Source: Gemmatimonadota bacterium (GTDB lineage Bacteria > Gemmatimonadota > Gemmatimonadetes > Gemmatimonadales > GWC2-71-9). From it: DNA of 64,000 nucleotides. Shown here piece by piece: positions 24,017 to 39,566 of this stretch. Position 1 is the first letter of the stretch. Each line of letters starts with the position of its first letter. The position numbers and the translations under genes are program-made. The stretch is taken from contig JBDHDE010000001.1 in NCBI GenBank assembly GCA_039591655.1, positions 1-64,000 on the forward strand, given 5' to 3'. Below the pieces are notes generated by a model. That model was not told the DNA's origin, ran no database searches, and saw only the letters and a list, made by a program, of their open reading frames with translations.

Positions 24017-24502
24017 TCACGGCATTCCCGGCGGCCCCCGCTGCTGCCTGCCCGCCCTCACACGCTCGATCTGCATCTGGAGCCGGCGCCACGAGAGCAG
24101 CAGCTGCGCCTGCTGCACCGGAGTCAGGAACGATCCCCACTCCTGCAGCTCGGCCCGGGCCTGCTCGAGGCGCTCCTCCTGCACCGCGATGAGATCGTTC
24201 ATGAGCGTCGTCAGGCTATCCTCGTCGGCGGCGACGCCTGGCCGCATCTGGTCATGCAGCGCCATCCACAGCTCGCGCTCGCGCCGCAGCAGTTGGGAGC
24301 GGGCTTCGAACGAGCTCCGCGCGGTCTCCTGAAAGCGTTGGAACTGCTCGTCGCTCAGGCCGGCCTGGTCGCGGTAGTTCTGCATGAAGCGCTGCACGAT
24401 CTGCTGCTGGAGTTGCTGTCGCTGCATGGGCGGCTCCTGCCCGGAGAGCGGCTGTGCGGCGACGGCAGCCAACACGGGGAGTATCCAGAGACTGCGCATC
24501 AT
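24017..24502 (-). CDS. Periplasmic helical Spy/CpxP-like sensor or chaperone
   Basis: Signal peptide, LSDEQ and LTPVQ (LTxxQ-type) motifs, Gln-rich helices. Confidence 0.75.
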   Translation of the reverse strand: MMRSLWILPVLAAVAAQPLSGQEPPMQRQQLQQQIVQRFMQNYRDQAGLSDEQFQRFQETARSSFEARSQLLRRERELWMALHDQMRPGVAADEDSLTTLMNDLIAVQEERLEQARAELQEWGSFLTPVQQAQLLLSWRRLQMQIERVRAGRQQRGPPGMP

Positions 24503-24915
24503 CCCTCCAACGATTCGAGCAGCGTACTCAGCTCGGCTTCGCTCAGTTCATCCAGCCCTGCAGGCACCAGCTCGTAGACCGGCGCCTCTGATTCCAGGGA
24601 GTCCAGCACCGCGGAGAGCTCCGCCTCGGCGAGCTGCTCCAGGCTGACTTGCACCGGTACCTCGCCCGCGGCCTGTGCCTGGGGACCTCCGAGCTGGCGG
24701 ACGCCCAATGCCACGGCGGCGACGATGGCTGCGGCGGCCAGTGCCTGGAGAACCGGCATGCGGCGGCGCCAGACCGGGCGCTGCCAGGAGGCCTCCTCAG
24801 CGGGCTCTGCACGGAGGCGGGCGAGCACGCCCTGGGCGGTCGCCTCGGGGTCGATCTCCCCTGCCCGCTTCCGGCCGAGCTCAGCCGCCAGTCGCTCGAT
24901 CTGCTTCTCGTCCAT
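24499..24915 (-). CDS. Putative anti-sigma factor (single TM)
   Basis: Directly downstream of the ECF sigma. Short cytoplasmic part, one TM, repeated LxxLxEAELSxLLxSLE helices. Confidence 0.7.
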   Translation of the reverse strand: MDEKQIERLAAELGRKRAGEIDPEATAQGVLARLRAEPAEEASWQRPVWRRRMPVLQALAAAAIVAAVALGVRQLGGPQAQAAGEVPVQVSLEQLAEAELSAVLDSLESEAPVYELVPAGLDELSEAELSTLLESLEG

Positions 24916-24938
24916 CTCGTCCCCGCTCGTTCGAGGCC

Positions 24939-24964
24939 GTCGCTGCCCCCGTTCTCACGTTTCC
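24939..24964 (-). promoter_or_regulatory. Putative internal ECF promoter upstream of the anti-sigma
   Basis: GGAAAC-N16-CGAC on the minus strand in the 59-nt sigma/anti-sigma gap. Confidence 0.45.
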
Positions 24965-24974
24965 CGCCTCCCGA

Positions 24975-25523
24975 CTATTGCAGCATCCGCTTGAGCCGCT
25001 TGACCGCCTGGTGGTAGTGCACCCGCGCGGCCCCGACGGAAGTCTCCAGGGCCTCTGCAATCTCCCGGTACTCAGCTCCCTGCTGGGCGCGCATCAGAAA
25101 GACGTCGCGCTGCATCGGCGGGAGCTGCCCAACCGCCTCCTCTAGCCGTCCCACCAGATCCCGCTCCACCACCTCGTCATGAGGATTGCTGCTCTCATCC
25201 CTGAGCTCGTGACCCTCCAGTGCGACTACTTTTCGCCCCCGACCGCGGCGCCGCAAGTCCTTCAGGGCGTTGGAGCCGATCGCCATGAGCCAGGTGCTGA
25301 AGCTGGCCTTCCCGCGATAGCCCTCGATCCGGCGAAACGCCCGGAAGAAGGTCTCCTGCACCAGATCGTCCAAGTCCTCCCGGGCCCCTGCCGCGGCCAG
25401 GAACCGCGCCACAGCTGGTGCGTGCCGCCGCACCAGCTCCGTCGCCGCCGCCTCGTCGCCTCCGCGCCACCTCGCGATGAGCTGGGCGTCACCGGGAGGC
25501 TCGACGGCCTCAGGCACCCTCAC
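24975..25523 (-). CDS. ECF RNA polymerase sigma factor
   Basis: DDLVQETFFRAF, FSTWLMAIGSN, LPPMQRDVF, YREIAEAL..VGAARVHYHQA. Confidence 0.95.
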   Translation of the reverse strand: MRVPEAVEPPGDAQLIARWRGGDEAAATELVRRHAPAVARFLAAAGAREDLDDLVQETFFRAFRRIEGYRGKASFSTWLMAIGSNALKDLRRRGRGRKVVALEGHELRDESSNPHDEVVERDLVGRLEEAVGQLPPMQRDVFLMRAQQGAEYREIAEALETSVGAARVHYHQAVKRLKRMLQ

Positions 25524-25653: not shown

Positions 25654-25682
25654 TTGACCAAACGGGAGCGATCTGATAGGTT
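25654..25682 (+). promoter_or_regulatory. Sigma70-type promoter of the paa-like operon
   Basis: TTGACC-N17-TAGGTT. Confidence 0.75.
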
Positions 25683-25690
25683 TTGCGCTC

Positions 25691-25704
25691 CGAACGAACG
25701 TTCG
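25691..25704. promoter_or_regulatory. PaaR-type TetR operator
   Basis: CGAACGAACGTTCG fits the Thermus thermophilus PaaR consensus CNAACGNNCGTTNG as I recall it. It lies between the -10 and the TetR ATG. Confidence 0.75.
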
Positions 25705-25705
25705 A

Positions 25706-26311
25706 ATGGCATCCAAAGCATACGACGAGCGCCTCGAGCGCCTGCTCTCGACCGCCGCCCGGGTCTTCGCCGCCAAGGGCTACCATCCCACTACGATGCG
25801 GGACCTCTCCCGCGCCACCGGGATGAGCCTGGCGGGGATGTACTACTACGTCGAGGGCAAGGATGAGCTCCTGGGGCTCATCCAGGAGCGGTGCTTTGCC
25901 CAGGTCGTGGACGGGGCGGAGGGCGCCCTGAGCCGGTTTACCGATCCGGCCGAGCGGCTGCAGCGCTTCATCCGGCACCACGTGACGTTCTTCGCCGAGC
26001 ACATGGCGGAGATGAAGGTCCTGTCCCACGAGGCCGAGAGCCTCTCCCGGGAGCGCCAAGCGGCCATCGGCGAGCTCAAGCGGCGCTACGTGGCGCTCCT
26101 GGTGCGCCTCCTGCACGAGGCCGGGATCGCGCGCAACGAGCGCCCCGACCCCAAGGTCGCCGCCTACGCGCTATTCGGCATGATGAACTGGATCTACACC
26201 TGGTACGACCCCAAGGGCCGCGTGCCGCCCCAGGCCCTCGCCGAGCAGTTCACCGAGCTGTTCCTGCACGGCGTGAACCGGTCCGGCCCGTCTCCGCCGC
26301 ACCTGGCGTGA
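25706..26311 (+). CDS. TetR family regulator (PaaR/KstR2-like)
   Basis: AARVFAAKGYHPTTMRDLS..GMYYYVEGKDELL HTH, LFGMMNWIYTWY C-terminal motif. Confidence 0.92.
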   Translation: MASKAYDERLERLLSTAARVFAAKGYHPTTMRDLSRATGMSLAGMYYYVEGKDELLGLIQERCFAQVVDGAEGALSRFTDPAERLQRFIRHHVTFFAEHMAEMKVLSHEAESLSRERQAAIGELKRRYVALLVRLLHEAGIARNERPDPKVAAYALFGMMNWIYTWYDPKGRVPPQALAEQFTELFLHGVNRSGPSPPHLA

Positions 26312-26353
26312 GGGACCTGGTGCCATGACCCACTCGCGAGCGAGGACCCAGCG

Positions 26354-27310
26354 GTGACCGCACAGAAGAAGCGTGACGCAGCAGAGCAGGCGCTGATCGA
26401 CAAGATCAACGGTGGGTTCATGGTGGAGTCCGAGGAGGACATGACCCCGGGCTACAAGAAGGCCCTGCTCACGCAGCTCACCGTGCAGGGCGACACCGAG
26501 CTGATGAGCGCCCCGGCCTACTACCTGGCGGCCCGGGACGCCCCCACCATCGACAGTCGCATCGCCGTGACGGCCATCGTCCACGACGAGCTGGGGCACG
26601 CCAACATCGCGTACCGCATCATGGAGGACCTCGGCGTGGACAAGCGGTGGCTCGTCTACGGCCGCGAGCCCCACGAGTTCAAGCACCCGTACGGCTTCGA
26701 CCAGCCCCTGGAGAACTGGGCGGAGATGGTCGTGGCGAACGGATTCTTCGACCGCGCCGGAATCACGCTCCTGGGTGATGTGCACCAGCACACCAGCTAC
26801 GGTCCCCTCAAGCGGGCGCTGGTGAAGGTCGACCGGGAGGAGGTCCTGCACCTGCGCCACGGGGAGTCCTGGATGCGGCGCCTGGCCAAGGCCGGCGGCG
26901 AGGCCAAGGAGGCGCTGCAGCGGGCGGTGGACTGGATGTTCGTGATGACGCTCGAGTGGTTCGGTCTACCCGACGACCTCAAGCGCCACTCGGGACAGCT
27001 GGTATACCGGCTCAAGGGCAAGACCAACGACCAGCTGCGCCAGACCTGGATGGAGGCCACGGTGCCGCTGTGCGAGGGAATCGGGATCGACGTCCCGGCG
27101 CACCATGACGAGGTCAAGCAGGAATACGTCATCGAGTGCCCGTTCCCGTGCCAGTACGACCCGAAAGCGAAGCGCTGGCTCTATGAGGAGCCGCTCGACT
27201 GGGATCGGGTGTTCCAGCGGTGGAAGGGGCGTGGACCCATGAACCAGCGCTACGTGGAGATGGTTCAGGGCAACGGCGGCATCTTCGGTGGCCGGCTGTG
27301 GCAAGCGTAG
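26354..27310 (+). CDS. paaA: Aryl-CoA epoxidase catalytic diiron subunit (PaaA-like)
   Basis: Ferritin-like ligands DTE, DELGH, FFD, EEVLH. SYGPLKRAL, GKTNDQLRQTW, WKGRGP. Confidence 0.85.
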   Translation: MTAQKKRDAAEQALIDKINGGFMVESEEDMTPGYKKALLTQLTVQGDTELMSAPAYYLAARDAPTIDSRIAVTAIVHDELGHANIAYRIMEDLGVDKRWLVYGREPHEFKHPYGFDQPLENWAEMVVANGFFDRAGITLLGDVHQHTSYGPLKRALVKVDREEVLHLRHGESWMRRLAKAGGEAKEALQRAVDWMFVMTLEWFGLPDDLKRHSGQLVYRLKGKTNDQLRQTWMEATVPLCEGIGIDVPAHHDEVKQEYVIECPFPCQYDPKAKRWLYEEPLDWDRVFQRWKGRGPMNQRYVEMVQGNGGIFGGRLWQA

Positions 27311-27612
27311 GCGAGGTGTGGGATGCGCTGGGCCGGGTGAGCGATCCCGAGTACCCGCTCAGCATCGTCGATCTGGGAATTGTGTACGGCGTGCGAGTGG
27401 ACGAGACCGGTGTCGCGCACATCGACGTCACGTTCACCTCCATCGGGTGCCCCGCCATCGACATGATCTGCTCGGATGTGCGCGACGCGGTACGAAGGGT
27501 GCCGGGCGTCGCCGAGGTGCGGGTGGAGATCGTGTGGAGCCCGCCCTGGACCAAGCAGCGGATCACCGACCGGGGTCGCCGGGTCCTGCGGATCTACGGC
27601 GTGGTCAACTAG
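27298..27612 (+). CDS. PaaD N-terminal-like DUF59/Fe-S assembly domain protein
   Basis: VWDALGRVSDPEYPLSIVDLGIV, TSIGCPAIDMI, WSPPWT..ITDRGR. GTG start at 27298. Confidence 0.88.
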   Translation: MASVGEVWDALGRVSDPEYPLSIVDLGIVYGVRVDETGVAHIDVTFTSIGCPAIDMICSDVRDAVRRVPGVAEVRVEIVWSPPWTKQRITDRGRRVLRIYGVVN

Positions 27613-27628
27613 CCGAAAGGAAGCGTTG

Positions 27629-27844
27629 ATGAGCGACGCTCGGGTCTACGAGGTGTTTGCCCGGAAGGACCACAACGAGGCGCTGAAGCACGTCGGCAGT
27701 GTGAACGCCGCCGACGATGATCTTGCGAAGGCGTATGCCTGGACCATGTACGACGAGGAGAGCTGGGTGGAGATGTGCGCGGTCCCCCGCAGCGCCTTCA
27801 TTCCCATCACCCACGACGGCGCGGTGCCGCTGTGGGGCAACTAG
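27629..27844 (+). CDS. paaB: Epoxidase subunit PaaB-like
   Basis: YEVFARK..HVGSVNAADDDLA..VPRSA. Confidence 0.82.
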   Translation: MSDARVYEVFARKDHNEALKHVGSVNAADDDLAKAYAWTMYDEESWVEMCAVPRSAFIPITHDGAVPLWGN

Positions 27845-27873
27845 TCACACCCGCCACCCGACCGTCGAACGCG

Positions 27874-28698
27874 ATGACGACACCGACGACCAGCGAATTC
27901 GAGTCGCCCGCGGCGATGAGCCAGGTTTGCGCTACCAGCCTGCGCAATCTCCTCGTGGCCCTCGCCGACACGAAGCTCCTCCTCGGCTACCACTACGGCG
28001 AGTGGACGTTCGGTCCGCCGGAGCTGGAGGCCGCGATCGCGGGCTGCTCCTTGTGCCAGACCGAACTGGGACACGTGCGGCTGCTGCATGGATTGCTGAA
28101 GCGCTACTACGGGGATGAGCCGGTGAGCCTCATCGAGGATCGCCCGGCGACGGCGTTCGCCAATGTCTCATATCTCGACCAGGAGCTCGAGGATTGGGCG
28201 GGCCTGGTCGCCGCCAACTACGCCGTGGACCTGGCGGCCACGCGGTTGCTCCATGCCTTGCGGGGCTCCGCGTTCACGCCGTTGCGCATGAGCCTCGAGA
28301 AGATGCTCGATGAGGAGCGCTACCACATCCACCACGGGCAGGGGTGGTTCCGGACCCTGGCACAGAAGGGCGACGAAACGCGGCAAGCCGTGGAGGCGAG
28401 CGTTCGGCGGGCTTTGGAGACCGTCGTCGAGTGGTTCGGACCGGCGGACGAGAGCGAGGACCTGGAGCTGGTGCAGGGCGGTGTGAAGTCCCGGACCAAC
28501 CGGGAGGTGCTGCAGGATCTCCTGGACGACGTGTCCCAGACGGCCACGCCCCTCGGCATGCGGATCGACGTCGAGCTGCCCGAGCAGATGCCCGGCTGGA
28601 GCCCCACCACGCGCCGCAGTGGGGGCGCGGGACCGGAGGAAGAGATCCTCTACCATCTCCGGGGCAGCAAGAACGCCGTCTTCAAGCTGCGCTCTTGA
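27874..28698 (+). CDS. paaC: Epoxidase structural subunit PaaC-like
   Basis: LADTKLLLG..GEWTFGPPELEAAIA, TELGH, DEERYHIHHG..W. Confidence 0.85.
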   Translation: MTTPTTSEFESPAAMSQVCATSLRNLLVALADTKLLLGYHYGEWTFGPPELEAAIAGCSLCQTELGHVRLLHGLLKRYYGDEPVSLIEDRPATAFANVSYLDQELEDWAGLVAANYAVDLAATRLLHALRGSAFTPLRMSLEKMLDEERYHIHHGQGWFRTLAQKGDETRQAVEASVRRALETVVEWFGPADESEDLELVQGGVKSRTNREVLQDLLDDVSQTATPLGMRIDVELPEQMPGWSPTTRRSGGAGPEEEILYHLRGSKNAVFKLRS

Positions 28699-28889
28699 GC
28701 ACACAGGCGAAGACGTGCCCGTTCTGTCGCTCGACCGAGACGGAGAAGCAGAGCGACTTCGGCACATCGCTCATGGTGGCGTTGTACTACTGCCGGCGCT
28801 GCCGCTCGTCGTTCGAAGCGATCAAGTGGGGTGATAGATCGGCGGAGCTGGATCTCCCCGATTTTCTCAAGGAACACGAATCCCGGTAA
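28695..28889 (+). CDS. Stand-alone PaaD C-terminal zinc-ribbon protein
   Basis: TTG overlaps the paaC TGA. CPFCRS..SDFGTS..LYYCRRCRSSFEAIK. Confidence 0.8.
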   Translation: MSTQAKTCPFCRSTETEKQSDFGTSLMVALYYCRRCRSSFEAIKWGDRSAELDLPDFLKEHESR

Positions 28890-28915
28890 CGGTAACTGAA
28901 GGAGGATGCACACAG

Positions 28916-29725
28916 ATGGCGACGACTGCTGCTGAGAAGACGAAGACCCTGGTGGAGCATCGGGTCGAGGACGGGCTGGCGATCCTGGAGCTCAACGATC
29001 CGCCGGCCAACACCTACACCTATGAGATGATGCGTCAGCTGGACGAAGCAATCCTCGACGCGCGGATGAACGACGATGTGCAGGTCATCGTGCTCCGCGG
29101 CAAGGGCGAGAAATTCTTCTCGGCAGGCGCCAACATCAAGATGCTCTCCGAGGTCACACCGCGGTTCAAGTACTTCTTCTGTCTCCACGCCAACGAGGCG
29201 CTGAACCGCCTGGAGCACACCCCGAAGCTCGTGATTGCCGCCCTCAACGGGCACACGGTGGGTGGCGGGCTGGAGATCGCCATGGCGGCCGACCTGCGCG
29301 TGGCCTGCAAGGACAACGGCAAGATCGGGCTGCCGGAGGTAACCCTGGGGGTGCTCCCGGGCACCGGCGGCACGCAGCGTCTCTCCCGCATCGTGGGCAA
29401 GTCGCGGGCAATCGAGATGATGGCCACGGGCAGGACCTTCTCGTTCGACGAAGCCAAGGACATCGGCTTGGTGAACGAGGTGTTCCCCAAGGGGAGCTTC
29501 TGGGACGAGGTCGTGGCTTACGCGAAGCAGTTCTGCACTCCCAACAAGGCCTCGAAGGCCGTGGGCAGCATCAAACGCGCTGTCTGTTCTGGCCTCGAGG
29601 TGCCGTTCGAGAGCGGACTCGCCATCGAGCGGGAGCTGCAGCAGCAGCTGTTCCAGAGCCAGGACGCGAGCGAGGGGCTCAACGCGTACGTCGAGAAGCG
29701 CCAGGCCAGCTTCAAGGGCGTGTAG
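28916..29725 (+). CDS. Enoyl-CoA hydratase/isomerase (crotonase) family protein
   Basis: FFSAGANI, GGGLEIA, LPEVTLGVLPGTGGTQRL. SD AAGGAGG. Confidence 0.92.
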   Translation: MATTAAEKTKTLVEHRVEDGLAILELNDPPANTYTYEMMRQLDEAILDARMNDDVQVIVLRGKGEKFFSAGANIKMLSEVTPRFKYFFCLHANEALNRLEHTPKLVIAALNGHTVGGGLEIAMAADLRVACKDNGKIGLPEVTLGVLPGTGGTQRLSRIVGKSRAIEMMATGRTFSFDEAKDIGLVNEVFPKGSFWDEVVAYAKQFCTPNKASKAVGSIKRAVCSGLEVPFESGLAIERELQQQLFQSQDASEGLNAYVEKRQASFKGV

Positions 29726-31154
29726 TGCGCACCCAACTCTTCATCGACAACGAATGGCGGGGGGCCGCCTCGGGCGAGACGCTCGAGGTGGTCAACCCCG
29801 CCACCGAAGAGGTTCTGGCAGAGGCGGCGTGGGCCGGGGAGGCCGACGTGGACGCAGCGGTCGCTGCGGCCCGCCACCGCTTCGAGAGCGTCGAGTGGCA
29901 GCAGCTCTCCCCGCGCCAGCGCGGTGCCCTGCTCTACCGCGCGGGCGAGTTGCTGCAGGCGCGGCGCCAGGAGATGGCGGAGCTCGAGACCAGGCAGAAC
30001 GGCAAGCCGCTCTTCGAGTCTAAGATCGACGTGGCCAGCACGGTGGAGGCGCTCAAGTACTACGGCGGCTGGGCCGACAAGATGGGCGGCACCGTGCTCC
30101 CGGTCGATGCCCCCGATTTCGTTTACACGGTGCGGGAGCCGTTGGGCGTGGTGGGCGCTATCGTGCCCTGGAACTTCCCGCTCAACCTCGCCAGCTGGAA
30201 GTTTGCGCCGGCGCTGGCCGCCGGTTGCACTGTGGTGCTGAAGCCCGCACCCGAGACGCCCCTCACCGCCCTGGCGATGGCGGACATCATGCAGGAGGCG
30301 GGCTTCCCGCCGGGAGCGTTCAACGTGGTGCCGGGCGACGGCCCCACCACGGGCGCCGCTCTGGTGCGGCATCTCGACGTGGACAAGATCGCCTTCACCG
30401 GCTCCACCGCCGTGGGCCAGCAGGTTATGCGAGAGGCGGCCGAGACGATCAAGCGCGTCACGCTGGAACTGGGTGGGAAGAGCCCCAACATCATCTTCGC
30501 CGATGCCGATCTGAAGGCCGCCGTGAAGGGTGCACAGAACGGCATCTTCTACGGCAAGGGAGAGGTATGCGCCGCCGGCTCGAGGCTCCTGGTGGAGCGC
30601 TCCGTGCACGACGAGGTGGTGGAGGCACTCGCTGCCCGGGCGAAGAAGCTCGTGCTGGGGGATCCCTTCGAGAAGGGCACCCGGCTCGGGGCCATCGCTT
30701 CGAAGCGGCAGCACAAAAAGGTGCTGTCGTACATCGAGAGCGGAAAGCAGGACGCCAAGCTCGTGGCGGGGGGCAATGCCGCTCAGGTGAAGGGCAAGGG
30801 CTACTTCGTGGAAGCCACCGTGTTCGACGAGGCCCGCCCCGGCATGAAGATCGTGGACGAGGAGATCTTTGGACCGGTGCTCTCAGTGGTGACGTTCGAT
30901 GACGTGGAGGAGGGGATCCGGTTGGCGAATCAGACGATCTATGGTCTCGCCGCCGGCATCTGGACGAAGGACATCCAGAAGGCGTTCCGCGTGGTGCGGG
31001 CCGTGCGAGCCGGCACCGTATGGGTGAACACCTACAACCTGTACGACTCGGCAGCTCCCTTCGGCGGATTCAAGGCAAGCGGATTCGGGCGCGATCTCGG
31101 ACGCGAGGCGCTGGACGGCTACACCGCAACCAAGACGGTGTGGATGGGGCTCAG

Positions 31155-31158
<4 letters not shown>
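29725..31158 (+). CDS. NAD(P)-dependent aldehyde dehydrogenase
   Basis: [46 protein letters not shown]. Confidence 0.96.
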
Positions 31159-32347
<1,189 letters not shown>

Positions 32348-32351
<4 letters not shown>

Positions 32352-33142
32352 GCGGCTTCGAGAACGTGATGGTGCGGCGAGACGGAGGGGTCGCGACGAT
32401 CACCCTGAACCGACCGGACAAGCTGAACGCGTTCGCCGGGCAGATGCGACAGGAGGTCGCCGAGGCGGTGCGGCAGGTGGCCGACGACGACGACGTCCGC
32501 GTGCTGGTGGTGACGGGGGCGGGTCGCGCCTTCTGCGCCGGAGCGGACATCGGCTACATGCGCGACCTGCTGGAGCAGGAGGACTGGGAGAACGCCGCGG
32601 GGCTGGTCGAGGCGGGCCGCGCCGTCGTCACGACGATCCGCAGCGTGCCCAAGCCGGTTATCGCCAGCGTCAACGGCCCGGCGGCGGGCGGGGGCGCGAA
32701 CCTGGCGCTGGCCTGTGACGTGCGCATCGCCTCGGACCGGGCGTCCATCGGTCAGACATTCAACCGCATCGGGCTCCACCCTGACTGGGGCGGCGCCTAC
32801 TTCCTGCCGCGACTGGTAGGAGCCTCCAAGGCCCTGGAGCTCATCTTCGCGGCCGAGATGATCGAGGCCCAGGAGGCTCATCGGCTCGGCCTGTTCAACC
32901 GCGTGGTGCCCCATGAGCGCCTCGCCGCCGAGACCGAGGCCTACGCCAAGACGCTGGCCGCCAAGGCTCCCATCGCGCTGGCCCTGGCCAAGCGTGCAGT
33001 TTATGAGAGCGGCGACCGGAGCCTGGCGGAGATGCTGGAGATGGAGCTCGAGCACCAGCTGCGCTGCTTCAAGAGCCGGGATGCCAAGGAGGGACTACAG
33101 GCCTTCCTGGAGAAGCGCGCGCCTTCGTTCCGCGGGCAATGA
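32348..33142 (+). CDS. paaG: Crotonase family, PaaG-like isomerase
   Basis: [13 protein letters not shown] and GLHPDWGG (single Asp; lacks the two catalytic Glu of hydratases). Confidence 0.75.
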
Positions 33143-33816
33143 CCCCTTGTCTGGTCATTGCACACCGGGGCGCGTCGGCCTACGAGGTGGAGAACTCCCT
33201 GGCGGCCTTCCGGCTGGCCCGGGACCAGGGTGCCGACGGCGTGGAGCTGGACGTGCACGTGAGCGCCGACGGCGTACCCGTGGTGCATCACGACCCCCAT
33301 GTGGACTCCCTCGCCATCGCTGCCAGTCCCCACAGGGAGCTCCGGGAGCTGCGCCTCCCCAACGATGAGGCGCTGCCCACGCTGTCCGAGGCGCTCGACG
33401 TGCTGGGGAAGGATCTCAACGCCTATGTGGAGGTGAAGGACCTCCCGCCCGAGCACGACGCGGCGATCCTCGAGGCGTTGGAGCGCGGTCCGGCTCCGAC
33501 CCGCTATCAGGTACACTCCTTCGATCATCGCATAGTGTGGCGGCTAAGGGCGCAGCGGCCTGCCCTGCCCACTGGCGTCTTGGTCGTGGCTCACGCGGTT
33601 CGCCCCCTGGTCCTCCTGGAGGACGCCGGGGCGAGTGTGCTGTGGCAGCAGGAAGGTCTGATCGACGAGCCGCTGGTCGCCGCCGCACACGAGCGCGGGT
33701 ATCGCGTCATCGCCTGGACGGTAGACGATCCGGCGCGCATGCGGCTACTTATTGAGGCGGGCGTAGACGGTATCTGTACGAATCGACCGGACGTGGCGAG
33801 GAGGGTCGTCGGATGA
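33139..33816 (+). CDS. Glycerophosphodiester phosphodiesterase family protein
   Basis: AHRGAS..ENSLAAF, VELDV..DG..VVHHD, AWTVD, GVDGICTNRP. Confidence 0.93.
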   Translation: MTPCLVIAHRGASAYEVENSLAAFRLARDQGADGVELDVHVSADGVPVVHHDPHVDSLAIAASPHRELRELRLPNDEALPTLSEALDVLGKDLNAYVEVKDLPPEHDAAILEALERGPAPTRYQVHSFDHRIVWRLRAQRPALPTGVLVVAHAVRPLVLLEDAGASVLWQQEGLIDEPLVAAAHERGYRVIAWTVDDPARMRLLIEAGVDGICTNRPDVARRVVG

Positions 33817-34676
33817 AGCGGCTCGCCGTGGTGGGCGCGGGCACCATGGGGCACGGGATCGCCCAGATCGGGGCCGTGGCCGGATACGAGGTCGTGGTGA
33901 CCGATGCAGACGCCGATGCGCTGGGGACGGCCCGGGACCGGATCGAGACGAACCTCGAGGGCGGCGTGAAGCGGGGCAAGCTCTCGCGGGAGGACGCGGA
34001 CGCGGCGCTGGACCGGATCGCCCTGGAGCGGGACCTCGAGGCCACGGCACGCGATGCCGACATGATCATCGAAGCCGTCGTCGAGGACCTGGACGTCAAG
34101 CGCGACCTCTTTGGACGACTCGACGGGCTCGTGGCGCCCGACGCGGTGCTGGCAACCAACACCTCGTCGCTGTCCATTGCCCGCATCGCCGCTGCTACGG
34201 ACCGGCCGCAGCGCGTGTTGGGCATGCACTTCTTCAACCCAGTGCACATCATGAAGCTGGTGGAGCTGGTCGTGCACGCGGGCACCGCCGAGGCCGCCGT
34301 CGCCCGGGCACGGGAGGTCGTGACGCGCATGGGCAAGGACCCTATCGTCGTGCGCGACAGCCCCGGGTTTGCGTCATCCCGCCTCGGGATCGCGCTGGGT
34401 CTCGAGGCGATGCGCATGCTGGAAGAAGAGGTGGCAAGCCCGGAAGACATCGACAAGGCGATGCAACTCGGTTACGGGCATCCCATGGGGCCGCTCGAGG
34501 TGAGTGACCTCGTCGGTCTCGACGTCCGCCTCGCCATTGCCGATTACCTGCACCGCGAGCTCGGCGGAGCTCGCTTCGATGCGCCCGAGATCCTGCGCCG
34601 CAAGGTGCAGGCGGGCGAGTTGGGGAAGAAAACCGGGAGGGGGTTCTACGAATGGCCAAAGAAAGCGTCGTCCTAG
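33813..34676 (+). CDS. paaH: 3-hydroxyacyl-CoA dehydrogenase (PaaH-like)
   Basis: GAGTMGHGIAQ, EAVVE, ATNTSS, GMHFFNP, HPMGP, LGKKTGRGFY. Confidence 0.9.
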   Translation: MKRLAVVGAGTMGHGIAQIGAVAGYEVVVTDADADALGTARDRIETNLEGGVKRGKLSREDADAALDRIALERDLEATARDADMIIEAVVEDLDVKRDLFGRLDGLVAPDAVLATNTSSLSIARIAAATDRPQRVLGMHFFNPVHIMKLVELVVHAGTAEAAVARAREVVTRMGKDPIVVRDSPGFASSRLGIALGLEAMRMLEEEVASPEDIDKAMQLGYGHPMGPLEVSDLVGLDVRLAIADYLHRELGGARFDAPEILRRKVQAGELGKKTGRGFYEWPKKASS

Positions 34677-35434
34677 TCGATATCGCGGACCGGATCGCGA
34701 TCGTCACCATCAATCGTCCCGACAAGCTCAACGCCCTCAACGCCGACGTGCGCCGCGAGTTCGTCCGGGTGATGGATGAGCTCAAGCATAACGAGGACGT
34801 GAGGGTCGTCATCGTCACGGGGGCGGGCGACAAGGCATTCGTGGCCGGCGCCGACATCGCCGAGTTCGCGGACCGCACAGGCGTCGACCAGTTCCACGTC
34901 ACCAAGAGCTTCGGGATATTCGAGGCGCCGGAGAAGTTCCCGCGGCCCGTTATCGCCGCCGTGAACGGCTTCGCTCTGGGCGGCGGCTGCGAGCTGGCCA
35001 TGGCGTGCGACATCCGAATCGCCTCGGACAAGGCCAAGCTCGGCCAGCCGGAGATCACCCTCGGCATCCTGCCCGGAGGCGGCGGCACCCAGCGCCTGCC
35101 CCGTCTGGTGGGACTGGGGAACGCCTACAAGCTCCTCTATACCGGTCAGATGATCAAAGCCGATGAGGCCCTCCGCTTGGGACTGGTGGACGAGGTCGTA
35201 CCCCACGATCAGGTGATGCAGCGGGCCCGGGAGCTGGCCGCAGAGATCGCCAAGAAGAGCCCGGTGGCTCTGGAGTTCATCAAGGACACCGTGAAGGCCA
35301 GCGTCAGGATGCCGCTGGACGAGGGCGTGCGGTTCGAGACCACGTATTTCGGCCTCGCGTTCTCGTCGGAGGACAAGGAAGAGGGCGTGAAGGCGTTCCT
35401 CGAGAAGCGGGAACCCGAGTTCAAGGGCAAGTGA
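34652..35434 (+). CDS. paaF: Enoyl-CoA hydratase (PaaF/Crt-like)
   Basis: AGADI, GGGCELA, QPEITLGILPGGGGTQRL (both catalytic Glu present). Confidence 0.8.
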   Translation: MAKESVVLVDIADRIAIVTINRPDKLNALNADVRREFVRVMDELKHNEDVRVVIVTGAGDKAFVAGADIAEFADRTGVDQFHVTKSFGIFEAPEKFPRPVIAAVNGFALGGGCELAMACDIRIASDKAKLGQPEITLGILPGGGGTQRLPRLVGLGNAYKLLYTGQMIKADEALRLGLVDEVVPHDQVMQRARELAAEIAKKSPVALEFIKDTVKASVRMPLDEGVRFETTYFGLAFSSEDKEEGVKAFLEKREPEFKGK

Positions 35435-36321
35435 GCGCGAGCGCGGCGGCCGGGTCAGGGGCGGAGCGGGCCGGCATCAGCGATCTCCACGTCCACATCC
35501 AGCCCTGGCGTGACCTCAAGCCCGACGTCGCCGCCAAGATGCGACGGGGCAAGGAGGATCACTGGGAGCGGCTCCTGGCCATGATGGACGATCCCCAGGT
35601 CCTCCTGCAGGTGCTCGACCAGGCCGGCATCTGGCGGGTGGGGCTGGTCAACTACCCCAGTCCCGATCTCATGGGGTTCAGCGACGACACAAACGGCTTC
35701 GCAGCGCGGTACGCGCAGGCAGCGCCGGAGCGTTTGCTGCCCTATGGAGGCGTCCATCCCCGGTTCACCACCGATCCCGAGGGGCAGGTCGAGGAGCTGC
35801 TGCAGCTCGGCATTCGCTGCCTCAAGATCCACCCACCGCACCAGGTCTTCCCGGCCAACGCGCACACCATGGGCCTCGAGGCGTTGGGGCGTATCTACCG
35901 CCGCTGCGAGGAGCGGGGGCTGCCCGTGATGGTCCACACCGGCACCAGCATCTTCCCCGGCGCCCGCTGCAAGTACGGCCGTCCGATGGAGCTCGACGAC
36001 GTGGCCATCGACTTTCCCGATCTCACCATCCTCATGGCGCACGGCGGACGTCCTCTCTGGATGGACGAGGCGTTCTTCATCCTGCGGCGGCACCGCAACG
36101 TGCACCTTGAGCTGTCGGGCATACCGCCGAAGAAGCTGCTCGAGTACTTCCCGCGGCTCGAGGAGGTCGGGGACCGCATCGTGTGGGGGACCGACTGGCC
36201 GAGTCCGGGCGTCGACGACCTGCGGCGCAACCTGGACCAGTTCCTGGCCCTCCCGCTGCCGCAAGCGCTCAAGGACCGGGTCACCCGCACGACGGCACTC
36301 GAGCTGTTCCCCGTGCGATGA
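35431..36321 (+). CDS. Amidohydrolase_2 family metallo-hydrolase
   Basis: DLHVH, KIHP, VHTG, AHGG, WGTDWP. Confidence 0.9.
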   Translation: MSASAAAGSGAERAGISDLHVHIQPWRDLKPDVAAKMRRGKEDHWERLLAMMDDPQVLLQVLDQAGIWRVGLVNYPSPDLMGFSDDTNGFAARYAQAAPERLLPYGGVHPRFTTDPEGQVEELLQLGIRCLKIHPPHQVFPANAHTMGLEALGRIYRRCEERGLPVMVHTGTSIFPGARCKYGRPMELDDVAIDFPDLTILMAHGGRPLWMDEAFFILRRHRNVHLELSGIPPKKLLEYFPRLEEVGDRIVWGTDWPSPGVDDLRRNLDQFLALPLPQALKDRVTRTTALELFPVR

Positions 36322-37775
36322 TTCGCCGCGCAGTGGTGGGCCTTGGGCCTGTCGCCTTCCTGCTCACCGTGTTGCTCCCGGCACCCGGCGCGCTCTCCGA
36401 GCAGGCCTGGCACGTGGCGGGGCTCGCGGCCTGGATGGCGGCGTGGTGGCTCACCGCCGCGGTGCCCCTCGAAGCCACTGCGCTCTTGCCGATAGTGTTC
36501 CTTCCGCTGGTCGGTGTGGCGCCGCTGGCGCGGGTCACCCGGTCCTATGCAGACCCGATCATCTTCCTGTTCCTGGGGGGCTTCCTCCTCGCCGCGACCC
36601 TGGAACGCTGGAACCTGCACAAGCGCTTTGCCCTCAGCACCGTGCGCGCCGTGGGGACCGACGCCCGCCGTGTGCTGTTGGCCTTCATGCTCGCGTCCGC
36701 GGTGGCGAGCATGTGGATCTCGAATACCGCCACGGCGATCATGATGCTGCCGATCGCTGCAGCCGTGCTCGGGGGACGACCCGGGAGAGGAGGGGGGATC
36801 GGGGCGGCGCCGGGCGGGCTCGGTGAGCTCCCCGCCGCCCTGATGTTGGGGGTGGCGTACGCGGCTTCCATCGGCGGCGTCGCTACGCTCATCGGCACGC
36901 CGCCCAACGCGATCTTTGCCGGCGCGGCGCGGGAGCTCCTGGGCGAAGACGTTAGCTTCGCGCAGTGGATGGCCCTCGGCGTCCCCATCTCAATCGTGAT
37001 GCTCGCCGGGTGCTGGCTCGTGCTGGTGGCGCTGTTCCGGGTGCGCGGCAAGGTCCCGGGGTTGGCCGACACGCTGGAGCGGGAGCACAGGGACCTGGGC
37101 CCGCTCACAGGCGGTGAGCGGTTCGTGCTCACCGTGTTCGGGCTCACGGCCCTCGCCTGGGTGCTGCGCGCGCCGAAGGAGATCGGCAGTCTCAGGATCC
37201 CGGGGCTGTCCGACCTGCTGCCCGGGATCTCCGATCCTGCCATCGCGATCGCGGCTGCTCTCGTGCTCTTCGTTACGCCGCTCAAGGGTCAACGGCACCG
37301 GGTCGCTCTGGACTGGGAGTCGGCCAGCAAGGTGCCCTGGGGCATCCTACTGCTGTTCGGCGGCGGGCTCGCGCTGGCCGGGGCGTTCGAGGCGAGCGGC
37401 CTGTCCCAGTGGCTGGGCGGTCGGTTGGCCTCCCTGCGGGGTGTTCCCCTGCCGTTCGTCATGCTGGTCACCGCGGCGGTGTTCGTCTTCCTCACCGAGC
37501 TCACCAGCAACACCGCCACGTCGGCGCTGGGGATGCCCCTCATTGCAGGGGTGGCTATAGGGCTGGGGTTGCCCGCCCTGCCCCTCATGGCCACGGTGGC
37601 CGTGGCTTCGTCGATGGCGTTCATGCTCCCCGTCGCGACGCCTCCCAACGCCATCGTGTTCGGCAGCGGGTGGATTCGACCGGCGCAGATGGCCCGGGCG
37701 GGAATCCTGCTGAACCTGATGTCGATACTGATTACGACCGTTGCGCTGTCGATTCGGGCGGCGCTGACGGGCTGA
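36318..37775 (+). CDS. SLC13/DASS sodium-coupled anion (dicarboxylate/sulfate) symporter
   Basis: SMWISNTATA, GTPPNAI, TELTSNTAT, FMLPVATPPNAIVF. Confidence 0.94.
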   Translation: MIRRAVVGLGPVAFLLTVLLPAPGALSEQAWHVAGLAAWMAAWWLTAAVPLEATALLPIVFLPLVGVAPLARVTRSYADPIIFLFLGGFLLAATLERWNLHKRFALSTVRAVGTDARRVLLAFMLASAVASMWISNTATAIMMLPIAAAVLGGRPGRGGGIGAAPGGLGELPAALMLGVAYAASIGGVATLIGTPPNAIFAGAARELLGEDVSFAQWMALGVPISIVMLAGCWLVLVALFRVRGKVPGLADTLEREHRDLGPLTGGERFVLTVFGLTALAWVLRAPKEIGSLRIPGLSDLLPGISDPAIAIAAALVLFVTPLKGQRHRVALDWESASKVPWGILLLFGGGLALAGAFEASGLSQWLGGRLASLRGVPLPFVMLVTAAVFVFLTELTSNTATSALGMPLIAGVAIGLGLPALPLMATVAVASSMAFMLPVATPPNAIVFGSGWIRPAQMARAGILLNLMSILITTVALSIRAALTG

Positions 37776-37791: not shown

Positions 37792-38025
37792 ATGAATCAC
37801 GACGACGAGAAGCTGACGGCGATCGCGAACTTCCGCACACGCCTCGAGGCGGAGACGGCGTCCGGGTTGCTTGTTGCAGAAGGCATCCCGTTCCTGATTC
37901 AGTCCCGAGAGGCGGCGGGGCTCGGCCCGGGGCCGGCCGGCGCCAGCATCCTGGTGCGAGAGGAGCACGCGGGGCAGGCCACGGAGATCCTGCGCGATGC
38001 GGGAGCCATCGAGGACGACGCGTAG
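37792..38025 (+). CDS. DUF2007-like putative signal-transducing protein
   Basis: EAETASGLLVAEGIP..ILVREEHAGQATEIL pattern, 77 aa. Confidence 0.75.
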   Translation: MNHDDEKLTAIANFRTRLEAETASGLLVAEGIPFLIQSREAAGLGPGPAGASILVREEHAGQATEILRDAGAIEDDA

Positions 38026-38083
38026 TGACGCACGAGCGTCGCAGCGCCACACACCCGACTCCCGAGCGACCCCCAGCCAGCCC

Positions 38084-38719
38084 ATGACACGCCGCCCACG
38101 CCTCACCCCGGCAGAGCGGCGCGTCGTCACCCGCTGCCGCTCACCCCAAGCCACGCAGCGCTGGATCAGGTCGCTGCGATACAACTGGGAGCGCGACGGC
38201 GACACGTTGCGCTCATTCCGCGCCGTGGTCCGACATCGTTCAGCCCATTGCCTCGAGGCGGCCATCGCGGCCGCGGCGGTGATGGAGCAGCACGGCTATC
38301 CGCCACTCCTGTTGGACCTGGAGTCACGGGATCACCTGGATCACGTGGTGTTCGCCTTTCGGGCCAACCGCCGGTGGGGCGCGGTGGGGGGCTCCCGGGA
38401 CGTAGGTTTGTGGGGACGCAGGCCGGTCTTCCCGAGCGCCGAGGCGCTGGCGCGAAGCTACTACGATCCCTACATCGATCTGACAGGGCGCATCGTGGCC
38501 TACGCCGTGGTGGATCTCCGGGAACTTGGCGGCTACGATTGGCGCTTCTCGGGGCGAAACGTCTGGAAGGTCGAGCGGTTCCTGATCGATGCGCGGCACC
38601 GAGCCATGCCCACCTCCTACCGGCGTTATATTCGGTTGCGCGAGCGGTATCGGGAGTTCATAGCGACACACGACCCGCGGGACACGCCGTTCAAGAGCGG
38701 GCGGCGGCACTGGATGTGA
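38084..38719 (+). CDS. Vasohibin-like (transglutaminase-fold) cysteine protease, putative
   Basis: QRWIRSLRYN..HCLEAA..DHVV..WGAVGGSR..PVFPS..LARSYYDPY parallels the VASH1 motif order. Confidence 0.7.
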   Translation: MTRRPRLTPAERRVVTRCRSPQATQRWIRSLRYNWERDGDTLRSFRAVVRHRSAHCLEAAIAAAAVMEQHGYPPLLLDLESRDHLDHVVFAFRANRRWGAVGGSRDVGLWGRRPVFPSAEALARSYYDPYIDLTGRIVAYAVVDLRELGGYDWRFSGRNVWKVERFLIDARHRAMPTSYRRYIRLRERYREFIATHDPRDTPFKSGRRHWM

Positions 38720-38726
38720 GGAGTCG

Positions 38727-39566
38727 ATGAACCGGATCGTGTACCTCAACGGCGAGTACCTGCCCTTCGAGCAGGCCCGGATCTCCCCCGAGGACCGGGG
38801 ATTTCTATTCGCCGACGGCATCTACGAGGTGGTGCGCAGCTACGGCGGGACGTTCTTCGAGCTGGACGCCCACCTCGACCGCATGGCCAGCGGCCTCGCG
38901 GCGCTCCACATCCAGGGGGTGGACGCCCGTGGCCTCGGCGCCGTGGCGCAGGCCCTGCTGGAGCGCAACGGCCTCGCGGGCCAGGACACGCTCGTCTACC
39001 TGCAGGTGACTCGGGGCGCTGCCACCCGGGGGCACGCGTTCCCCGATCCCCCCGTGCCACCCACGGTGTATGCCGCGGCGACGCCGTTCGCTCCCAAGGC
39101 AGATCCCGCCCGGGGCGTGGCCGTGATCACGGCTACGGATCACCGCTGGTCCCGCTGCGACATCAAGACGGTCGGTCTGCTGGCGAACTGCCTCGCGCTA
39201 CAGCAGGCCCGCGACGCGGGTGCCCTCGAGGCGATCCTGGTGCGGGATGGCGTGGCACTCGAGGGCACGCACACCAGCTTCTTCGGCGTGTTCGACGGGG
39301 TGGTTCGCACCGCTCCCCGGAACAACTACATCCTCCCCAGCATCACCCGACGTGTGACGCTGGAACTGTGTGCCGAGCACGGTGTGACGGCCGAGGAGAC
39401 GCCGATCTTCCACCGCGACCTTCCCGCGGCCGACGAGCTCTTTCTGGCCGGCACCACCATGGAGATCATGCCCATCGTGAAGCTGGACGGCCGGCCGGTG
39501 GGAGGCGGCAAGCCGGGCCCTGTGGCACGGCGCCTCCTCGAGCGTTTCCATCTTCGCACGCCGTGA
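38727..39566 (+). CDS. dat: D-amino-acid aminotransferase (class IV PLP enzyme)
   Basis: EDRGFLFADGIYEV, YLQVTRG..RGHAFP, RWSRCDIKT..LLAN, ILPSITR. Confidence 0.85.
   Translation: MNRIVYLNGEYLPFEQARISPEDRGFLFADGIYEVVRSYGGTFFELDAHLDRMASGLAALHIQGVDARGLGAVAQALLERNGLAGQDTLVYLQVTRGAATRGHAFPDPPVPPTVYAAATPFAPKADPARGVAVITATDHRWSRCDIKTVGLLANCLALQQARDAGALEAILVRDGVALEGTHTSFFGVFDGVVRTAPRNNYILPSITRRVTLELCAEHGVTAEETPIFHRDLPAADELFLAGTTMEIMPIVKLDGRPVGGGKPGPVARRLLERFHLRTP

Follow-up and report, generated by a model that had tools for sequence, protein, structure and literature searches.

What does a Paa-like aryl-coenzyme A (CoA) epoxidase act on when the reductase, the ligase, and the PaaZ enzyme of the Paa pathway are absent from its operon? 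This question is raised by a 15-gene unit at positions 25654 to 37775 of the window, by which we mean the whole 64,000-nucleotide stretch of contig JBDHDE010000001.1 of a Gemmatimonadota bacterium. An earlier note on this DNA had suggested that the enzyme may use a CoA ester other than phenylacetyl-CoA. That suggestion is now the favored one, with benzoyl-CoA as the specific candidate: judged from sequence comparisons, the operon probably encodes an aerobic, CoA-dependent, Box-type benzoate pathway in which a multi-subunit Paa-type benzoyl-CoA epoxidase replaces BoxB.

The epoxidase cassette and its catalytic subunit

The epoxidase is encoded by five genes in the order A-D'-B-C-D'', the halves of PaaD being split around B and C:

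26354 to 27310, + strand: catalytic diiron subunit, PaaA-like, of a third lineage; six iron ligands aligned
27298 to 27612, + strand: DUF59 protein, N-terminal half of a split PaaD (PF01883; TIGR02159 positions 1-88)
27629 to 27844, + strand: short PaaB-like subunit (PF06243, above cut-off)
27874 to 28698, + strand: PaaC-like structural subunit (PF05138; groups with PaaC)
28695 to 28889, + strand: Zn-ribbon protein, C-terminal half of the split PaaD (PF23451; TIGR02159 positions 105-144)

The DUF59 and Zn-ribbon genes, which the earlier note had counted as separate components, are both present but are better described as two halves of one PaaD. In the PaaC-like subunit, the first iron-ligand Glu is aligned with Lys.

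The PaaA-like protein is 28-29% identical to PaaA of Escherichia coli, and the alignment conserves all six iron ligands (E49, E79, H82, D133, E163, and H166; PaaA ligands as in the consulted part of PMC4498308). The lysine bridge of PaaA (K68, E49) is lost, with I75 and Y56 at the corresponding sites; among 240 clade homologs, the first site is Ile or Val in all 240 and the second is Tyr in 238. Trees of PaaA and BoxB, which were quick ones with long deep branches, resolved four groups, namely canonical PaaA, PaaC, BoxB, and the window clade (support, 92-94), and nesting of the clade within proteobacterial-type PaaA, a group chosen after the first tree, was rejected (approximately unbiased test, p 0.0006). 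By sequence, the PaaA-like protein is a third lineage that lies outside canonical PaaA and BoxB alike. This placement, together with a score of 126 bits versus a cut-off of 280 for TIGR02156, bears out the divergent epoxidase clade proposed in the earlier note. A search of the ESM Atlas returned PaaA_PaaC clusters only, and a search of 50% representatives returned mostly fragments, which were left out of the trees.

The N-terminal helix that had been singled out as atypical does differ from E. coli PaaA, with LTVQGDTELMSAPAYY at the site aligned with HAHSEIVGM. This atypical helix, with QGDTELMS, matches QGDTEPAS of BoxB. The residues that orient the substrate in BoxB are Q116, T119, S123, F193, F203, F206, and T210 (consulted part of PMC5489048); with numbering carried over via alignments only, four of these seven are identical in the window protein (Q45, T48, S52, and F115) versus one in E. 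coli PaaA.

Exchange with a short BoxB and the predicted ring-opening genes

Of the genes that follow the cassette, all but the GDPD gene are predicted to open the ring and degrade the product:

28916 to 29725, + strand: crotonase 1, single-domain and BoxC-like, the likely ring opener (best BoxC match in the genome)
29725 to 31158, + strand: stand-alone aldehyde dehydrogenase (ALDH) without a MaoC domain, probably in the BoxD role (PF00171)
31155 to 32351, + strand: 3-oxoadipyl-CoA thiolase-like protein (57% to E. coli PaaJ; TIGR02430, 549 bits versus a cut-off of 597)
32348 to 33142, + strand: crotonase 2, PaaG-like isomerase (groups with PaaG, 99/94; both Glu lost)
33139 to 33816, + strand: GDPD-family phosphodiesterase (PF03009)
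33813 to 34676, + strand: 3-hydroxyacyl-CoA dehydrogenase, single-domain and PaaH-like (42% to E. coli PaaH)
34652 to 35434, + strand: crotonase 3, PaaF-like hydratase (groups with PaaF, 94/90; two Glu retained)

A total of 251 genomes of the phylum were searched with the BoxB model, the PaaA-like protein, and crotonase 1. They included 71 with the clade (E < 1e-70), 49 with a short BoxB (E < 1e-40 but below cut-off), and 45 with weak matches only, classed as canonical, of which five loci were inspected; the tallies include the unpublished genomes G133 (clade) and G188 and G213 (short BoxB). One or the other oxygenase was found in 120 of the 251. Crotonase 1 occurs in 119, comprising 70 of the 71 clade genomes, 48 with short BoxB, one with neither, none with both, and none of the canonical class; it was also found in five of five genomes outside the sample. 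Homologs of known origin assign the host to Gemmatimonadales, and among 60 sampled relatives, which include the unpublished genome G023, 12 contain the PaaA-like protein at 84-91% identity.

Synteny across related genomes showed that the operon is kept while its oxygenase is exchanged. At all nine short-BoxB loci examined, which were found via relatives with a 22-26% PaaA match and one of which is from the same genus as the host, a matching operon encodes one protein of 370-376 amino acids and no Paa cassette. The gene sits between crotonase 2 and the GDPD gene, behind a shared sigma-factor gene where the contig reaches that far. Among families the short protein matches TIGR03225 best, and in the PDB BoxB 3PER (E 3.5e-60); in the tree it joins BoxB with a support of 100. 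On a 39-row backbone tree of shared genes, the oxygenase type switches at least six times, and monophyly of short BoxB was rejected (p 4e-13). Because the cassette swaps with a benzoate-pathway enzyme in relatives, it likely degrades benzoate rather than phenylacetate.

In the tree, crotonase 1 falls with the two BoxC domains (99/99) and away from PaaF and PaaG; it also has the BoxC motifs AGANI-ML and FC---NE, with the two Glu retained. The likeness extends to 34-36% identity over about 185 amino acids of a one-domain protein on long branches, and TIGR03222 is outside its top 25 families. Ring opening by a crotonase and a free ALDH, as the earlier note had supposed, gains support from this grouping. 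The lower-pathway genes are compatible with either a Paa or a Box route. The thiolase gene is missing from four of five same-genus clade operons examined; the GDPD gene is retained in the operon across the order, and in other orders the operon loci inspected lack it. In three loci of other lineages (L277, L279, and L280), crotonase 1 follows a suf-like operon with a DUF59 gene, and in L277 Hcr-like genes continue the same run.

BoxC releases formate as it opens the ring, and an isomerase step belongs to the subsequent route. In the proposed pathway, subunit A, with C and B, would convert benzoyl-CoA and O2 to the 2,3-epoxide, which crotonase 1 would open to formate and 3,4-dehydroadipyl-CoA semialdehyde. 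The ALDH would oxidize the semialdehyde, and crotonases 2 and 3, the dehydrogenase, and the thiolase would complete the conversion to succinyl-CoA and acetyl-CoA. The course from the epoxide to 3-oxoadipyl-CoA is drawn partly from section 15 of PMC4498308.

The clade also occurs on plasmids of Thermus thermophilus (59% identity) and haloarchaea (46-56%), where its neighbors include benzoate-CoA-ligase-family genes, crotonase 1 homologs, and ALDHs. The ligase beside the Thermus cassette scores 591 bits versus a cut-off of 375, and the benzoate-CoA ligase model was the best family in all four haloarchaeal loci scanned, one above the cut-off and three at 370-375. Three further loci (L113, L115, and L116) have such a gene by the cassette, as do 14 of the 37 metagenome loci of at least 8 kb (from 80 returned); all 12 of the metagenome ligases scanned were above the cut-off. 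Some clusters contain two benzoate-type ligases. Further neighbors of the haloarchaeal copies are a 2Fe-2S ferredoxin and, in many cases, CoA-transferases and UbiD pairs; Haloterrigena turkmenica has a formate dehydrogenase there as well. More distant copies (35-48%) adjoin other ligase types. In the Thermus-type branch, PaaB-like genes occur as a tandem pair (L113-L116 and L161), and a further A-D'-B-C branch at 35-39% identity, with other ligase types, is found on Agrobacterium and haloarchaeal plasmids (L122 and L124).

In other orders and phyla, the cassette is not linked to the crotonase operon, and thioesterase genes lie near some haloarchaeal copies. Both observations would suit an aryl-CoA hydroxylase, whose epoxide rearranges to hydroxybenzoyl-CoA while the crotonase operon has another job. 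We consider this very unlikely, however, given that crotonase 1 accompanies the clade so consistently within and outside the sample and that cassette and crotonase 1 share one operon here, with no thioesterase in it.

Partner enzymes, regulation, and rival substrates

The components that the earlier note had listed as absent (PaaK, PaaE, PaaI, and a MaoC domain) are indeed missing from the unit. In the whole assembly (95% complete, 149 contigs), E. coli PaaE, PaaK, PaaI, and PaaX found no match at E < 1e-3, PaaZ was matched only via its ALDH part, and a PF00175 search returned nothing. BoxA and BoxB had no match in this genome, nor did the BoxB model TIGR03225; the enzyme is multi-subunit, not a single chain. 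Neither PaaE nor BoxA was found in 160 clade loci. None of the five AMP-binding enzymes in the genome is PaaK or a benzoate-CoA ligase, no family I CoA-transferase was found in it, and one family III transferase exists. Genes for a molybdopterin enzyme, an Fe-S protein, and NrfD-like subunits lie by that family III transferase gene (C5:20860-26302), with no named family above cut-off. The genome has six Fer2 matches, but no small free ferredoxin is among them; an unlinked 4Fe-4S ferredoxin and a Rieske ferredoxin are present. The use of a free ferredoxin, as the earlier note had imagined, is supported in the haloarchaeal clusters only and not here.

The argument for an atypical substrate built on these absences carries little weight by itself. 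They do not identify the substrate, because a canonical haloarchaeal paa cluster with PaaK is similarly stripped, showing a split PaaD, a free ALDH, an amidohydrolase, and neither a PaaE-type reductase nor PaaZ. An ordinary dispersed paa pathway, which the earlier note had kept in view, did not emerge either: no paaE or paaK was found, and no second operator copy lies before a related gene in this genome.

A candidate source of benzoyl-CoA is an Hcr-like molybdoenzyme encoded elsewhere in the genome, in an HcrCAB-like operon unlinked to the window (C74:4930-9739) that includes an inserted 200-amino-acid gene and a YggX-like gene. Its beta subunit matches 1RM6_B (E 1.6e-54) and retains the four-Cys insert. 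By homology to 1RM6, the product would be benzoyl-CoA; this role is inferred because the enzyme scores below all three curated TIGR cut-offs. A second, fused Hcr-like gene is found at C54:10815-13650. Across the 251 genomes, the HcrA model matched 117, of which nine were set aside as fused and of a different type (seven checked; six of the nine are canonical-PaaA genomes). Of the remaining 108, 13 of which were checked by sequence, 107 have either the clade enzyme or a short BoxB; crotonase 1 is present in the one exception. By class, the Hcr-like enzyme is found in 63 of 71 clade, 44 of 49 short-BoxB, and 0 of 45 canonical-PaaA genomes. Outside the sample, four of five genomes have a strong HcrA-like match and seven of eight an HcrB-like match, and an Hcr-like gene adjoins the cassette in 4 of the 37 metagenome loci.

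Anaerobic benzoyl-CoA genes were also found (C35:1-8000 and C87:1-8062), with bzdNOQ, oah, and had above cut-off and a second BcrBC-like reductase set. The sequences of bzdNOQ, oah, and had indicate that the host genome handles benzoyl-CoA; they were not used as general support, because bzdO occurs in only 2 of 61 relatives. A Pfam search for HmgA was discarded as uninformative, having returned 0 of 61 relatives, including one with what we take to be an HmgA-like gene; direct searches with the genes of that relative found nothing in this genome. A second aromatic amino-acid ammonia-lyase homolog lies by a trans-4-hydroxyproline dehydratase gene at C35:25985-27508. PhgA, named p-hydroxybenzoyl-CoA 1-hydroxylase in the literature consulted, was considered by description only.

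The regulatory features precede the cassette:

25654 to 25682, + strand: putative promoter TTGACC, 17 bp, TAGGTT (read from the sequence; in many, not all, relatives)
25691 to 25704, + strand: palindromic operator CGAAC-N4-GTTCG, directly 5' of the tetR start
25706 to 26311, + strand: TetR-family regulator (PF00440 and PF17932; PDB matches 5K7F, 3DCF, and 3VPR)

The palindrome lies within 200 bp 5' of tetR in 37 of 37 loci (38 matches overall in 1.11 Mb). It was also found in seven short-BoxB operons, before two stand-alone cassettes, before 1 of 13 Hcr-like operons, and before the TetR gene of a canonical boxCB operon. The TetR is 37-41% identical to the TetRs of the boxCB operon and of two reductase-like clusters. 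It likely senses an aryl-CoA, to judge from these comparisons, and would repress via the palindrome until the ester binds.

Several observations weigh against benzoyl-CoA as the substrate. The overall sequence is closer to PaaA, the clade profile matching PaaA at E 1e-35 and finding no BoxB match at E 0.01. The palindrome does not settle the effector, because it also agrees with the consensus for PaaR of Thermus, a regulator that responds to phenylacetyl-CoA. The clade system excludes canonical paa in the phylum, and crotonase 1 is missing from all 45 canonical-PaaA genomes, as expected if both systems did one job. Short BoxB is itself uncharacterized (TIGR03225, 216-247 versus a cut-off of 499), the tree evidence for crotonase 1 is weakened by the long branches of BoxC, and related genomes are not independent of each other. 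This genome and the two same-genus genomes of the sample yielded no benzoate-CoA ligase, and neither an electron donor nor a source of the CoA ester was found here. The ligase-bearing Thermus-type and haloarchaeal members are only 53-60% identical to the window protein; PaaK-fold ligases, below cut-off, adjoin the clade in two metagenome loci; and Hcr-like genes were found on none of seven cassette-bearing plasmids. Ligase-family matches elsewhere in the phylum (42 of 71 clade genomes) were rejected as support because the four lower-scoring ones examined sit in what we take to be an anthranilate cluster.

Part of this evidence would fit a second, reductase-less phenylacetyl-CoA pathway in which the clade and short BoxB both epoxidize phenylacetyl-CoA; a 2-oxoacid dehydrogenase would make the ester from phenylalanine, and no ligase would therefore be needed. 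A PaaA-type scaffold accompanied by B, C, and a divided D, an operon with PaaG-, PaaF-, PaaH-, and PaaJ-like genes, the PaaR-type operator, the exclusion of canonical paa, the similarly stripped haloarchaeal cluster, and a fused E1 in this genome (36% identical to one beside canonical paa) are all consistent with it. We nevertheless regard this reading as unlikely. The clade lies outside canonical PaaA and has lost the lysine bridge, PaaK above cut-off occurs in 0 of 71 clade versus 7 of 45 canonical genomes, and the neighboring ligases are of benzoate type. One genome (G287) holds canonical PaaAC alongside the clade enzymes, the Hcr-like partner has no place in such a pathway, and phenylacetyl-CoA is not turned over by those BoxB enzymes that have been characterized (PMC4498308, section 15).

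The pocket bears on a different alternative. Three BoxB pocket residues differ in the window protein (F203/M125, F206/A128, and T210/F132), and Ser takes the place of Q45 in all 120 Thermus-type branch proteins compared and in haloarchaea, the ligase-bearing members; these differences, too, count against an unsubstituted benzoyl-CoA. The substrate could then be benzoyl-CoA with a hydroxy, amino, or methyl group on the ring, or could differ by sub-branch with Gln45 or Ser, and TIGR02262 as a subfamily spanning several aryl acids, the paired benzoate-type ligases, and the unexplained amidohydrolase and GDPD would agree with this. Short BoxB and the cassette, however, have replaced each other repeatedly while the regulator and the downstream genes stayed the same, and a dehydroxylating Hcr-like partner points to an unsubstituted ring. 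On both counts we consider this reading quite improbable and prefer benzoyl-CoA.

Operon context, known systems, and significance

The 15 open reading frames of the unit, all on the + strand, stand in the order of the earlier note without internal stops; adjacent frames overlap at 10 of 14 junctions and are never more than 42 bp apart, confirming a near-continuous unit. Their families are TetR, PaaA_PaaC (two), DUF59, PaaB, Zn_ribbon_PaaD, ECH_1 (three), Aldedh, thiolase, GDPD, 3HCDH, Amidohydro_2, and DASS. An automated scan called no promoter at 25654 to 25682, the putative promoter being below its thresholds, and promoter and terminator scans were at chance level. Two genes complete the unit:

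35431 to 36321, + strand: Amidohydrolase_2 protein (PF04909; sole PDB match, an uncharacterized protein)
36318 to 37775, + strand: DASS-family anion symporter (TIGR00785, above cut-off)

The amidohydrolase shares 40% identity with a homolog next to the clade cassette in Halalkalicoccus and 27% with its counterpart in a canonical haloarchaeal paa cluster, and the DASS gene is absent from many related operons. The transcription unit may extend beyond 37775, as the next gene begins 16 bp after it, an order kept in the genus. Genes for a DUF2007 protein, a 211-amino-acid protein, and a D-amino-acid transaminase-like protein follow in conserved order (37792-39566, + strand), possibly on the same transcript. 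Divergent from tetR are an extracytoplasmic function sigma factor and two small genes (24017-25523, - strand), conserved beside clade-type and short-BoxB-type operons. Also on the - strand, at 41813-44662, is a 949-amino-acid protein that by eye resembles a transcriptional activator fused to an ATPase domain. An intergenic palindrome resembling repetitive extragenic palindromes, CGCGAACTGCAGTTCGC, recurs at eight positions of the assembly (e.g., C7:50525 and C13:35036).

The window system qualifies, on its sequence features, neither as PaaABCE nor as BoxB. It shares with PaaABC(D)E of E. coli (PDB 3PW1 and 4IIT) the ferritin-like A and C, PaaB, the PaaD domains, the six iron ligands, a pocket Phe (F108 in PaaA, F115 here), PaaF/G/H/J-like lower-pathway enzymes, and a TetR of PaaR type. 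It differs in its separate lineage (28-29%), the lost lysine bridge, the order A-D'-B-C-D'', the absence of PaaE, PaaK, PaaZ, PaaI, and PaaX, and the BoxC-like crotonase. With BoxABCD (Azoarcus evansii BoxB, 3PER/3PM5), it shares the QGDTE--S helix, a DR-G motif, a predicted BoxC-like ring opener with a free ALDH, benzoate-type ligases beside relatives, and exchange with a BoxB-clade protein; however, BoxB is a single chain, whereas here a catalytic subunit of PaaA-like sequence is accompanied by B, C, and D subunits, the BoxC-like enzyme has one domain, and BoxA is lacking. The canonical paa cluster on pHBOR04 of Halogeometricum borinquense likewise has a split PaaD, a free ALDH, and an amidohydrolase, with no flavin reductase or PaaZ seen within 15 kb, but its PaaA groups with canonical PaaA, PaaK and PaaI are present, and its crotonase is PaaG-like. 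The C74 partner resembles HcrCAB (PDB 1RM6) in its three subunits and the four-Cys insert in beta; unlike HcrCAB, it falls short of the three TIGR cut-offs and travels with an O2-dependent system, anaerobic bzdO being present in just 2 of 61 related genomes.

We found no description of the clade or of a Paa-type benzoyl-CoA epoxidase in the literature covered, which included little of the subscription literature; supplementary tables of PMC13186573 may list such clusters. PaaA and PaaC serve as markers of phenylacetate degradation (PMC13186573, as consulted), and databases label the clade proteins PaaA. If benzoyl-CoA is the substrate, many genomes are misread, including 71 of the 251 sampled Gemmatimonadota. 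A multi-subunit Paa enzyme and the single BoxB chain would then be able to stand in for each other, which bears on the evolution of these epoxidases and their choice of substrate. For Thermus and haloarchaea, of which cultured strains exist, the clade is a candidate for aerobic breakdown of benzoate, and it poses the question of how an epoxidase is reduced without PaaE or BoxA. A bolder proposal, which we hold only tentatively and think doubtful, is a third class of aryl-CoA epoxidase, consisting of a multi-subunit benzoyl-CoA epoxidase and a one-domain BoxC with the Hcr-like molybdoenzyme as fixed partner. The role of the molybdoenzyme would be either to remove the hydroxyl group of 4-hydroxybenzoyl-CoA for the O2-dependent ring opener or to supply electrons as PaaE and BoxA do. 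If this were true, the system would be a main aromatic route of Gemmatimonadota and would also be found in Calditrichota, KSB1, Thermus, and haloarchaea.

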